Shown: positions 42,938-45,003 of the stretch, in pieces
How positions within the stretch are numbered: position 1 is the first letter of the stretch
Layout: each line of letters opens with the position of its first letter
NCBI RefSeq assembly: GCF_048403405.1
Contig: NZ_CP183129.1
Strand: one strand, 5' to 3'
DNA length: 64,000 nucleotides
Source of the DNA: Escherichia coli
GTDB taxonomy: Bacteria > Pseudomonadota > Gammaproteobacteria > Enterobacterales > Enterobacteriaceae
Notes under the pieces: model-generated
Told to the model about the DNA's origin: nothing
Databases searched by the model: none
Seen by the model: only the letters and a program-made list of their open reading frames with translations
Position numbers and translations under genes: made by a program

Positions 42938-42960
42938 TGCCCATTCCGTCAGGAATGGGC
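42938..42960 (-). terminator. Hairpin just downstream of aroH (putative terminator)
   Basis: gcccattcc-gtcag-gaatgggc, 7 nt after the aroH stop; the U-run is weak. Confidence 0.45.
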
Positions 42961-42966
42961 ACGCAT

Positions 42967-44013
42967 TCAGAAGCGGGTATCAACCGCAGAGGCGAGTTTT
43001 TCGACCAGGCGTTCGGTATCTTCCCAGCCCAGACACGGGTCGGTAATGGATTGACCGTAAGTGAGCGGCTGACCGCCGACGATTTTTTGCGTTCCTTCGC
43101 GCAGGAAACTTTCCGCCATAATTCCAGCAATCGCCGTAGAGCCATTGCGGATTTGCTGACAAATATCCTCACAAACTTCTAACTGGCGACGGTGCTGCTT
43201 CTGGCAGTTACCGTGGCTGAAATCCACCACCAGATGTTCAGGCAAATCAAATTCGTGCAGCGTATCGCAGGCTGCGGCGATATCATCGGCATGATAATTC
43301 GGTTTTTTGCCGCCACGCATAATAATGTGGCCATACGGGTTGCCACTGGTCTGATAGATGGTCATCTGACCATTTTTGTCTGGCGAGAGGAACATATGGC
43401 TGGCGCGGGCTGCGCGGATAGCATCCACAGCAATCCGCGTGTTGCCATCGGTACCATTTTTAAAACCTACCGGACAGGAGAGTGCCGAAGCCATTTCACG
43501 GTGGATCTGACTTTCGGTAGTACGTGCGCCAATCGCGCCCCAACTGATTAAATCAGCAATAAACTGACCGGTCACCATATCGAGGAACTCAGTCGCGGTA
43601 GGGACGCCCAGCTCATTTACCTGTAAAAGTAATTTGCGCGCCAGCTCCAGACCGTGATTTACCCGATAGCTGCCGTTTAAATCCGGATCGGAGATTAGCC
43701 CTTTCCAGCCGACAACAGTCCGTGGTTTTTCAAAATAGGTGCGCATTACGATTTCCAGCCGTGACTGGTACTGGTTGCGCAGCGACTGCAGACGGGTGGC
43801 GTACTCCATTGCAGCGGTGAGATCGTGGATCGAGCAGGGGCCAATAATGACCAACAGTCGCTTATCTTCACCATTCAGTATTTTTTCAATTCTGCGGCGG
43901 GAGTCGGTGACATGGGTGGCGACGCCAGGCGTTACGGGATACCGTAGCGCGAGTTCGGCGGGCGTTACCAGGCTCTCAATACGCGCAGTACGGAGTTCGT
44001 CAGTTCTGTTCAT
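42967..44013 (-). CDS. aroH: DAHP synthase, Trp-sensitive isozyme
   Basis: 348-aa ORF. Confidence 0.95.
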   Translation of the reverse strand: MNRTDELRTARIESLVTPAELALRYPVTPGVATHVTDSRRRIEKILNGEDKRLLVIIGPCSIHDLTAAMEYATRLQSLRNQYQSRLEIVMRTYFEKPRTVVGWKGLISDPDLNGSYRVNHGLELARKLLLQVNELGVPTATEFLDMVTGQFIADLISWGAIGARTTESQIHREMASALSCPVGFKNGTDGNTRIAVDAIRAARASHMFLSPDKNGQMTIYQTSGNPYGHIIMRGGKKPNYHADDIAAACDTLHEFDLPEHLVVDFSHGNCQKQHRRQLEVCEDICQQIRNGSTAIAGIMAESFLREGTQKIVGGQPLTYGQSITDPCLGWEDTERLVEKLASAVDTRF

Positions 44014-44158
44014 TACAAGTCTCAGAAATTTGTTGCTTCTACGGCAGGACTACCGGGAAGTGATGCGCATCACGATAAACCAATCGCAGCTGATTTCAAG
44101 TGCGAGGTGTGTCACACCTCGCCGGGTGGTTAGCATGATAACAAAAAAATAAGCTAAT

Positions 44159-44176
44159 GCACTAGTTCTCTAGTAC
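44159..44176 (-). promoter_or_regulatory. TrpR-type operator upstream of aroH
   Basis: On the aroH strand GTACTAGAGAACTAGTGC carries the tandem ACTAG motif typical of TrpR operators; it overlaps the last codons of ppsR. Confidence 0.55.
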
Positions 44177-45003
44177 ATTCGGCGGCTAAGGCCCATGATA
44201 TCGAGGATCTTGGTGGCAATCTCTTCTACCGAATAATTGGTACTGTTAATCCACGGGATCTGATTTTTACGGTACAACGCTTCCACTTCCGCGACTTCCA
44301 TCCTGCACTGACGAAGCGAGGCATAGCGACTGTTCTCCCGACGTTCCTCGCGAATCGCCGCCAGACGTTCCGGGTCGATAGTCAGGCCGAACAATTTATG
44401 CTGAAGCGGTTTGAGCGACGCGGGTAGCACCAGATTATCCATATCGTCGGCAATAAAGGGGTAGTTTGCCGCGCGGATACCAAATTGCATTGCCAGATAC
44501 AGACTGGTGGGGGTTTTACCACAGCGAGAAACACCGAGCAGGATCACCTGAGCCTGATCCAGATTGCGCAACGAAATGCCGTCATCGTGGGCGAGGGTGT
44601 AATCAATCGCCGCAATGCGCGCATCATATTTATTGAGATTATTAGGGTTAAGGCCATGGGTACGATGAGCAATCGGCGTGGGATCCAGTTTCATCTCTTG
44701 TTGTAGCGGGGCAACCAGCGCCTGAACGATATCCTGGCAAAAGCCCTCACTTTGCAAGATGATGGCGCGAATCTCCGGCAACACGATGGAGTAGAAGACC
44801 AGCGGGCGCACACCTGTCTGGTGATAAATTGCGTCAATCTGATCCTTCACTGCCCGTGCACGGCTCTCATTTTCGACAAACGGCAGCGTAATGCTGCTGA
44901 TAGTGACGGGAAATTGTGACATTACTGCGTGTCCTAATACCTCCGCAGTTATTGCCGTACCATCAGAAATATAAAAAACGTGGCGATCAACAGCATTATC
45001 CAT
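44170..45003 (-). CDS. ppsR: PEP synthetase regulatory protein (bifunctional kinase/pyrophosphorylase)
   Basis: 277-aa ORF with P-loop (GVSRCGKT); divergent from ppsA. Confidence 0.9.

Follow-up and report, generated by a model that had tools for sequence, protein, structure and literature searches.

The operators of the trp regulon (trpEDCBA, aroH, trpR, mtr and aroL) are 18-bp dyads with two CTAG cores that lie over the −35 element of a promoter, ahead of a tryptophan-pathway gene. The operator described here, GTACTAGAGAACTAGTGC, agrees with this description, the −35 element beneath it being a predicted one, and differs in nothing of kind, being the aroH member of the set itself. Among CRP-regulated promoters, cyaA P2 and crp itself have their CRP boxes on the transcription start or a short way past it, where bound cAMP-CRP represses by blocking RNA polymerase. 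Two kinds of RNA hairpin are also close to what is found at this locus. In ompA-type mRNAs, a stable, GC-rich stem-loop lies close to the 5′ end of the transcript, and classical protective hairpins of this sort tolerate fewer than 4-6 unpaired 5′ nucleotides. Rho-independent terminators combine a perfect GC-rich stem and a short loop, placed past a stop codon, with a U tract. An operator that covers the coding 3′ end of the gene upstream is known from lacI, where LacI bound at the lac operator overlapping the lacI 3′ end reportedly leads to truncated transcripts and a tagged product.

Much of the aroH control region is already known. TrpR control of the gene is established in the literature and its operator is a textbook example, as is tryptophan-dependent repression by bound TrpR (Kumamoto 1987; Klig 1988). 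According to the title of a 1991 report, aroH has two promoters (Hudson et al., 1991), and the two CRP 16-mers discussed below both stand in a ChIP-seq table published in 2015 (Haycocks et al., 2015). What is added here is a consistent map of the region, in which the overlap of the operator with the upstream gene ppsR is ancient and conserved, the downstream promoter is under clear selection, and a 21-bp palindrome between the two promoters is read as a maintained hairpin overlapping a CRP box, and not as a terminator.

The ppsR–aroH junction and its operator

The window, by which we mean the whole 64,000-nucleotide stretch of Escherichia coli DNA that was analysed, carries ppsR and aroH one after the other on the minus strand, divergent from ppsA on the plus strand. 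In the direction of aroH transcription, the features are:

45003..44170, minus: ppsR, 277 aa, ending in ...RRMY-TAG inside the TrpR operator
44176..44159, minus: aroH TrpR operator GTACTAGAGAACTAGTGC, by consensus match
44172..44170, minus: ppsR stop codon TAG
44135..44140, minus: predicted −10 element of the upstream promoter P1, TATCAT, by reading of the sequence
near 44127-44130, minus: predicted P1 transcription start, placed from the −10 element
44102..44122: 21-bp palindrome, GCGAGGTGTG-T-CACACCTCGC on the plus strand and GCGAGGTGTG-A-CACACCTCGC on the aroH strand
44101..44116: CRP box 1, TGCGAGGTGTGTCACA on the plus strand and TGTGACACACCTCGCA on the aroH strand, by ChIP-seq/MEME and position weight matrix (PWM)
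44094..44099, minus: −35 element of the downstream promoter P2, TTGAAA, by consensus scan
44072..44077, minus: −10 element of P2, TATCGT, by consensus scan
44059..44074: CRP box 2, AGTGATGCGCATCACG, by ChIP-seq/MEME and PWM, spanning the P2 start
44064, minus: P2 transcription start, a published start that gives a 51-nt leader
44036..44060, minus: leader stem-loop CUUC..CGG..CCG..GAAG, common to P1 and P2 transcripts
44013..42967, minus: aroH, 348 aa, the tryptophan-sensitive DAHP synthase
42938-42961: likely aroH terminator just past the aroH stop, a hairpin with perfect 10-bp arms followed by UUUCU

The encoded AroH is 99.7% identical to that of K-12. A 351-bp query around the site, which is 100% identical to strain 2012C-4221, was recovered from 5,422 of 5,426 complete E. 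coli genomes, and the annotation always gives ppsR followed by aroH. The same order was found in all 80 of the Enterobacteriaceae loci that were collected via PpsR. The 80 junctions analysed consist of the K-12 locus and 79 fetched ones, with L040 left out for its 1.6-kb insertion. Insertions between ppsR and the aroH operator, ranging from 24 bp to 1.6 kb, are present in three species, at loci L033, L040 and L070.

An initial sequence-only reading of the window had placed a TrpR-type operator at 44159-44176 and had seen it run over the final codons and the stop of ppsR, and both observations are borne out. GTACTAGAGAACTAGTGC agrees with the 18-bp TrpR consensus GTACTAGTTAACTAGTAC, with its two CTAG cores, at 15 of 18 positions and is the sole match with at most three mismatches in the 64 kb, where shuffled sequences give 0.00. 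In it, the final G of the ppsR Met codon is followed by the Tyr codon, by TAG and by 11 bp that lie past the gene. Its left arm is formed by the Tyr codon and TAG, and the wider dyad ATGTACTAG..CTAGTGCAT adds the Met codon (ATG-TAC-TAG). In 78 of the 80 loci, the G of that codon is the first base of the operator, and in the other two, insertions have shifted the operator downstream. Its orthologues match the consensus at 13-16 of 18 positions, with GTACTA and CTAGT essentially invariant.

On the side of the coding sequence, ppsR reads ATG-TA[CT] ahead of the stop region in every one of the 80 loci and ends in TAA or TAG, TGA being used in none. The Tyr codon is TAT in L033, a locus with an insertion before the operator. 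Further away in the family, the PpsR tail is very variable and ends in MY in none of 92 full-length representatives of 50%-identity clusters; the nearest of them end in RR[LMVK][YF]. The PpsR family thus had an ending of the Tyr-stop type at its disposal, which then came to be fixed as half of the operator. The comparison across loci shows an ancient, constrained and conserved arrangement. That the final two ppsR codons and the stop also serve as the left arm of the aroH operator, throughout the Enterobacteriaceae to judge from the sequences compared, is rarely spelled out.

As RNA, the operator region (44143-44179, minus strand) folds with −11.4 kcal/mol and is followed six nucleotides later by U7; it was flagged as terminator-like with respect to ppsR. 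The T run after the operator is present in Escherichia, Salmonella and Citrobacter only.

Two promoters and two CRP boxes

A TAnnnT hexamer lies 17-18 nt past the operator in 63 of the 80 loci, and this conserved spacing would put the −35 element of P1 on the right arm of the operator, in agreement with the classical literature, which has it on the operator. The start position of P1 is predicted from the −10 hexamer, and it is absent from a table of transcription start sites obtained from mid-log cells of MG1655 in M9 glucose (Kim et al., 2012).

Downstream of the palindrome, a consensus scan returned one promoter-like site, TTGAAA-16-TATCGT, here called P2. The only aroH start detected in the same cells, position 1786408 of NC_000913.2 with 414 reads (Kim et al., 2012, supplementary file 2), was placed on the window by its flanking sequence and falls at 44064, eight bases past the P2 −10 element. 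This element conforms to TA[TA]NGT in 76 of the 80 loci and varies at hexamer positions 3 and 4 only; the −35 element is TTGAA[AT] in 70, and the 16-bp spacer is kept in 74. Nine loci that have no P2 −35 element (L007, L008, L010-L013, L015, L016 and L036), from the C. freundii complex, C. koseri and Intestinirhabdus, all carry TG at the extended −10 position, which looks like compensation that would keep P2 active. Given the mapped start and the conservation, P2 is therefore real and under selection. The sequence-only reading had described the aroH control region as embedded in the preceding gene; this is correct for the TrpR-controlled P1 and does not extend to P2, whose start is fully intergenic.

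The P2 spacer (44078-44093, minus strand; TCAGC.GCGATTGGTT), and above all GATTGGTTTA, is far more conserved across genera than a promoter spacer requires. A leader-peptide attenuator working through the TGG codon in GATTGGTTTA was considered and rejected; no start codon is in frame in the window or in the 11 other genera for which the block could be located, and the variable bases coincide with the P2 −10 hexamer and not with synonymous sites. Motifs for Cra, PdhR, TyrR and FNR, compared by eye with the TTGAAATCAGC..GATTGGTTTA block and with the palindrome, gave no fit. Further down, the conserved leader stem-loop at 44036..44060 is predicted to have seven pairs, three of which are backed by compensatory changes (RNAalifold, 48 sequences/species).

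In enterotoxigenic E. coli H10407, a high-confidence CRP ChIP-seq peak has been assigned to aroH, and the sites found in it by MEME are AGTGATGCGCATCACG and TGCGAGGTGTGTCACA (Haycocks et al., 2015), here boxes 2 and 1. By RefSeq coordinates, the reported peak centre is 170-210 bp from both motifs, and the peak cannot separate one from the other; no other CRP candidate was found within 300 bp of that centre. With a PWM built from the 97 other ChIP-seq sites of the same study (consensus TGTGA-N6-TCACA), box 2, which is a 14-bp perfect palindrome GTGATGCGCATCAC, scores 14.6 bits and ranks first among 63,985 positions of the window. Box 1 scores 12.8 bits and ranks third, next to a training-site median of 13.1, from which the probability of its chance occurrence in a 40-bp interval is estimated at about 1 in 1,000.

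Of 81 Enterobacteriaceae sequences, 70 have a box 2 of 10 bits or more, always 51-55 nt ahead of the ATG. An upstream box of at least 8 bits is found in 32 of the 81; in the same interval, Kosakonia has a box of 19 bits, strain ENT03 one of 18, Pluralibacter one of 16 and Kluyvera one of 14, and these four are 48-54 bp from box 2, not 42. The distance of the upstream box from box 2 is 42, 48, 51 or 54 bp, which means that there is no single conserved geometry. In the E. coli, Salmonella and Citrobacter group, changes in box 1 fall mostly in the N6 spacer, and the TGTGA and TCGCA halves are retained, with GGTGA in S. arizonae as the exception.

The centre of box 2 is at −2.5 of P2; that of box 1, 42 bp away, is at −44.5 of P2 and at about +19 of the predicted P1. 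Neither box fits the canonical positions of CRP activation (−41.5, −61.5 and so on). One box past the predicted P1 start and one on the P2 start are repressor-type positions, so the effect of CRP on aroH is likely to be a lowering of transcription. The aroH boxes share with cyaA P2 and crp their location at or just past a start, and the aroH pair is set four helical turns apart. At aroH, unlike at those two promoters, what has been published is ChIP-seq occupancy nearby and repression is putative, and box 1 forms part of a larger palindrome that has another axis.

The palindrome between the promoters

The palindrome had been noticed in the sequence-only reading as a 21-bp inverted repeat around a single central base. 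The repeat is indeed perfect (10+1+10), and its coordinates are 44102-44122 and not 44101-44121. With the arms set to 10 or more and the spacer to 5 or less, the window has nine distinct perfect inverted repeats, compared with 0.17 in dinucleotide shuffles, and the palindrome is not a chance occurrence. Several of the other repeats have A/T-run flanks and a terminator-like look. The 31-mer around the palindrome is a single-copy sequence (median 1; 5,447 places in 5,422 records), and membership in a REP-like repeat family was rejected.

Folding on both strands, which had been proposed as a check, gave −15.6 kcal/mol in the aroH sense and −15.4 kcal/mol on the opposite strand (z of about −4.2), and none of 200 shuffles was as stable. 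Any transcript that crosses 44102-44122 will contain a 9-bp stem with a 3-nt loop. The palindrome begins 36 nt past the end of the operator on the aroH side and 48 nt after the ppsR stop, and covers −58 to −38 of P2, ending two bases before its −35 element, and approximately +5 to +25 of the predicted P1. Lying upstream of the P2 start, it is absent from P2 transcripts and is carried only by P1 mRNA and by ppsR read-through. An aroH leader structure, one of three roles that had been suggested for it, is supported for P1-derived mRNA and not for that of P2. The stem begins 12 nt past the predicted P1 −10 element not only in E. coli but also in Enterobacter and Leclercia, which implies about +5/+6 from the predicted start.

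Of 5,422 E. coli genomes, 5,368 (99%) have a fully identical 31-mer around the palindrome, and the part of the leader next to the ribosome-binding site varies just as little. The core 31-mer of P1 (44128-44158) is identical in 3,515 of 5,412 genomes (65%), with 943 showing 2-3 differences, and that of P2 in 3,161 of 5,419 (58%). Outside the species, the palindrome is conserved in Salmonella and in the C. koseri/amalonaticus group. The outer 5′ arm GCGAGG, which is outside the 16-bp CRP core, is conserved from Escherichia to Salmonella and C. koseri/amalonaticus apart from A-to-G changes, and the 12 nt ahead of it vary freely. Box 1 overlaps the aroH-proximal three quarters of the palindrome, with dyad axes 3.5 bp apart; this offset, together with the conserved GCGAGG, indicates that a CRP box does not account for the whole dyad.

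Within the E. coli group, the stem has mostly changed in ways that leave G.U pairs on the aroH-sense strand, and in the five variant species the sense folds are 0.9-5.8 kcal/mol more stable than the antisense ones. Over all 27 strong hairpins there is no such bias (p = 0.86), which leaves position and the E. coli group as the grounds for the RNA-level reading. In other genera, the same slot is occupied by unrelated GC hairpins: CGGGGCG..CGCCCCG in Enterobacter and Lelliottia, GCGGAGC..GCTCCGC in Pseudenterobacter, and CAGGGCA..TGCCCTG in Leclercia and Silvania. Their stabilities are between −13 and −18 kcal/mol, their arms are 3-6 nt apart, and they lie 2-4 nt before TTGAA; those of Enterobacter, Lelliottia, Leclercia and Silvania begin 12 nt past the P1 −10 element and end 2-3 nt before TTGAA. 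None of these unrelated hairpins contains a CRP motif, which, together with the arm spacing, argues against a dimeric protein site and for a folded nucleic acid.

Degenerate forms of the palindrome occur in E. albertii, in E. whittamii and in a cryptic lineage of Escherichia; the C. freundii complex has lost it through a 30-bp deletion, and it is absent from Cedecea, Buttiauxella, Franconibacter and Atlantibacter. Such repeated loss and degeneration indicate that it is dispensable. A scan of 43500-44700 with the covariance models of Rfam 15, at E-values up to 10, gave no relevant match.

Possible roles of the palindrome and of the overlap

The reading that we put forward, tentatively and with a probability of roughly 45%, is a composite one, with the palindrome serving both as a secondary CRP box and as a stem-loop not far from the 5′ end of P1 mRNA, the transcript under TrpR control. 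It draws on the positions of the elements, the strength of the motifs and the conservation described above, and on the ChIP-seq peak and P2 start known from the literature. The control region would consist of tandem promoters, with the −35 element of P1 under the TrpR operator and P2 further downstream, and the palindrome between them would act as both DNA and RNA. At the DNA level, box 1 and the stronger, family-wide box 2 would let cAMP-CRP occupy the leader, and high cAMP would lower aroH transcription. At the RNA level, the full dyad would form a stable 5′-proximal stem-loop in P1 mRNA and in ppsR read-through only, most likely lending structure or stability to the mRNA that TrpR controls. 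It would resemble ompA-type hairpins as a stable, GC-rich stem-loop next to the 5′ end predicted for one transcript isoform, and would differ from them in a predicted 4-6 unpaired 5′ nucleotides, so that it may be too far from the end for 5′-end protection. This distance is a predicted one, since the P1 start is absent from the table of mapped starts.

Of the three roles suggested in the sequence-only reading, a protein-binding site has the most direct support, in the form of a CRP box that lies under a ChIP-seq peak and ranks third in the window. A purely RNA role, in which the palindrome is a 5′-proximal stem-loop of P1 mRNA acting in stability or pausing, the likeness to a CRP site is incidental and the ChIP-seq signal comes from box 2, is in our view unlikely. 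It would account for the stable and statistically unusual stem, for the CRP-less hairpins in the same slot of five other genera (Enterobacter, Lelliottia, Leclercia, Silvania and Pseudenterobacter), for the G.U variants on the sense strand in the E. coli group and for a peak that does not resolve the two boxes. However, it leaves to coincidence a box 1 score near the training median, the strong CRP boxes that many other genera have in the same interval, and halves of box 1 that are kept in the E. coli group where the spacer varies. That the full 21-bp dyad is instead the site of another dimeric regulator, acting on P1 or P2, has a very small probability: the perfect 10-bp arms are centred at −48 of P2 and are almost invariant in E. 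coli, but their sequence does not extend beyond the Escherichia/Salmonella/C. koseri group, and the hairpins of neighbouring genera are built from unrelated arms at variable distances from each other. To our knowledge, the dyad matches no known E. coli regulator motif. An element without a function of its own, a neutral remnant conserved through its overlap with the CRP box or through short divergence, would fit the repeated loss and decay in E. albertii, E. whittamii, the C. freundii complex and several outgroup genera, yet it is very unlikely in view of a palindrome far less polymorphic than the flanking promoter cores across 5,422 E. coli genomes, and of an outer arm beyond the CRP core that is conserved from Escherichia to Salmonella and Citrobacter when the adjacent 12 nt are not.

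A ppsR terminator, the third suggested role, has turned out to be the least supported. The tail past the stem, CUUGAAAUC / ACUUGAAAUC, has two U in its first eight nucleotides; there is no U tract 3′ of the stem, and a terminator scan did not flag the site, the operator hairpin with its U7 being the only terminator-like site flagged between ppsR and aroH. The palindrome is not a canonical Rho-independent terminator. It resembles such terminators, including that at 42938-42961, in its perfect GC-rich stem, short loop and position past a stop codon, and differs from them in having the P2 −35 hexamer where the U tract would be. A weaker version, in which the palindrome forms the 3′ end of ppsR mRNA as a U-less terminator or a shield against 3′ exonucleases and limits read-through from ppsR or P1 into P2, is quite unlikely. 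Its location 48 nt past the stop on the same strand, a stem sequence that turns over between genera as the hairpin stays, which is typical of terminators, and the lack of a canonical terminator elsewhere between the two genes would suit this version. On the other side stand the U-poor CUUGAAAUC tail, which is itself the conserved P2 −35 element, the operator hairpin with U7 as an alternative weak terminator in E. coli, and L033, in which the insertion between ppsR and the operator has left a hairpin with the aroH leader and not with ppsR. Efficient termination at the palindrome would moreover abolish the established TrpR control from P1, which argues against any strong terminator there. No sense 3′ end for ppsR or aroH is among the ends listed from term-seq (Adams et al., 2021), weak evidence given that ppsR is weakly expressed, and no transcript ends at this place were matched in the supplements of SMRT-Cappable-seq and Cappable-seq.

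If CRP represses both promoters, as the composite reading would have it, the way into aromatic amino-acid synthesis would be linked to the carbon status of the cell, beside the genes for PEP synthetase and its regulator. Such a link between CRP and aroH would be a matter of modest regulatory physiology, and useful for the engineering of aroH strains. PEP is a substrate of AroH, and the ppsR product is the regulator of PEP synthetase. By analogy to lacI alone, with which ppsR shares a repressor operator over the coding 3′ end of the upstream gene, one may also imagine that TrpR on its operator stalls RNA polymerase as it finishes ppsR. In tryptophan-rich cells, polymerase would then halt a few codons before the ppsR stop and yield stop-less mRNAs and a product that is tagged and degraded, and tryptophan would be coupled to the level of the PEP synthetase regulator; in the same scheme, cAMP-CRP would repress both aroH promoters and the hairpin would limit ppsR read-through into P2. 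As a whole, this scheme is a long shot. On the opposite strand, an RNA 3′ end antisense to ppsR has been listed at K-12 coordinate 1787648, minus strand, which corresponds to about 44800 on the plus strand of the window (Adams et al., 2021).
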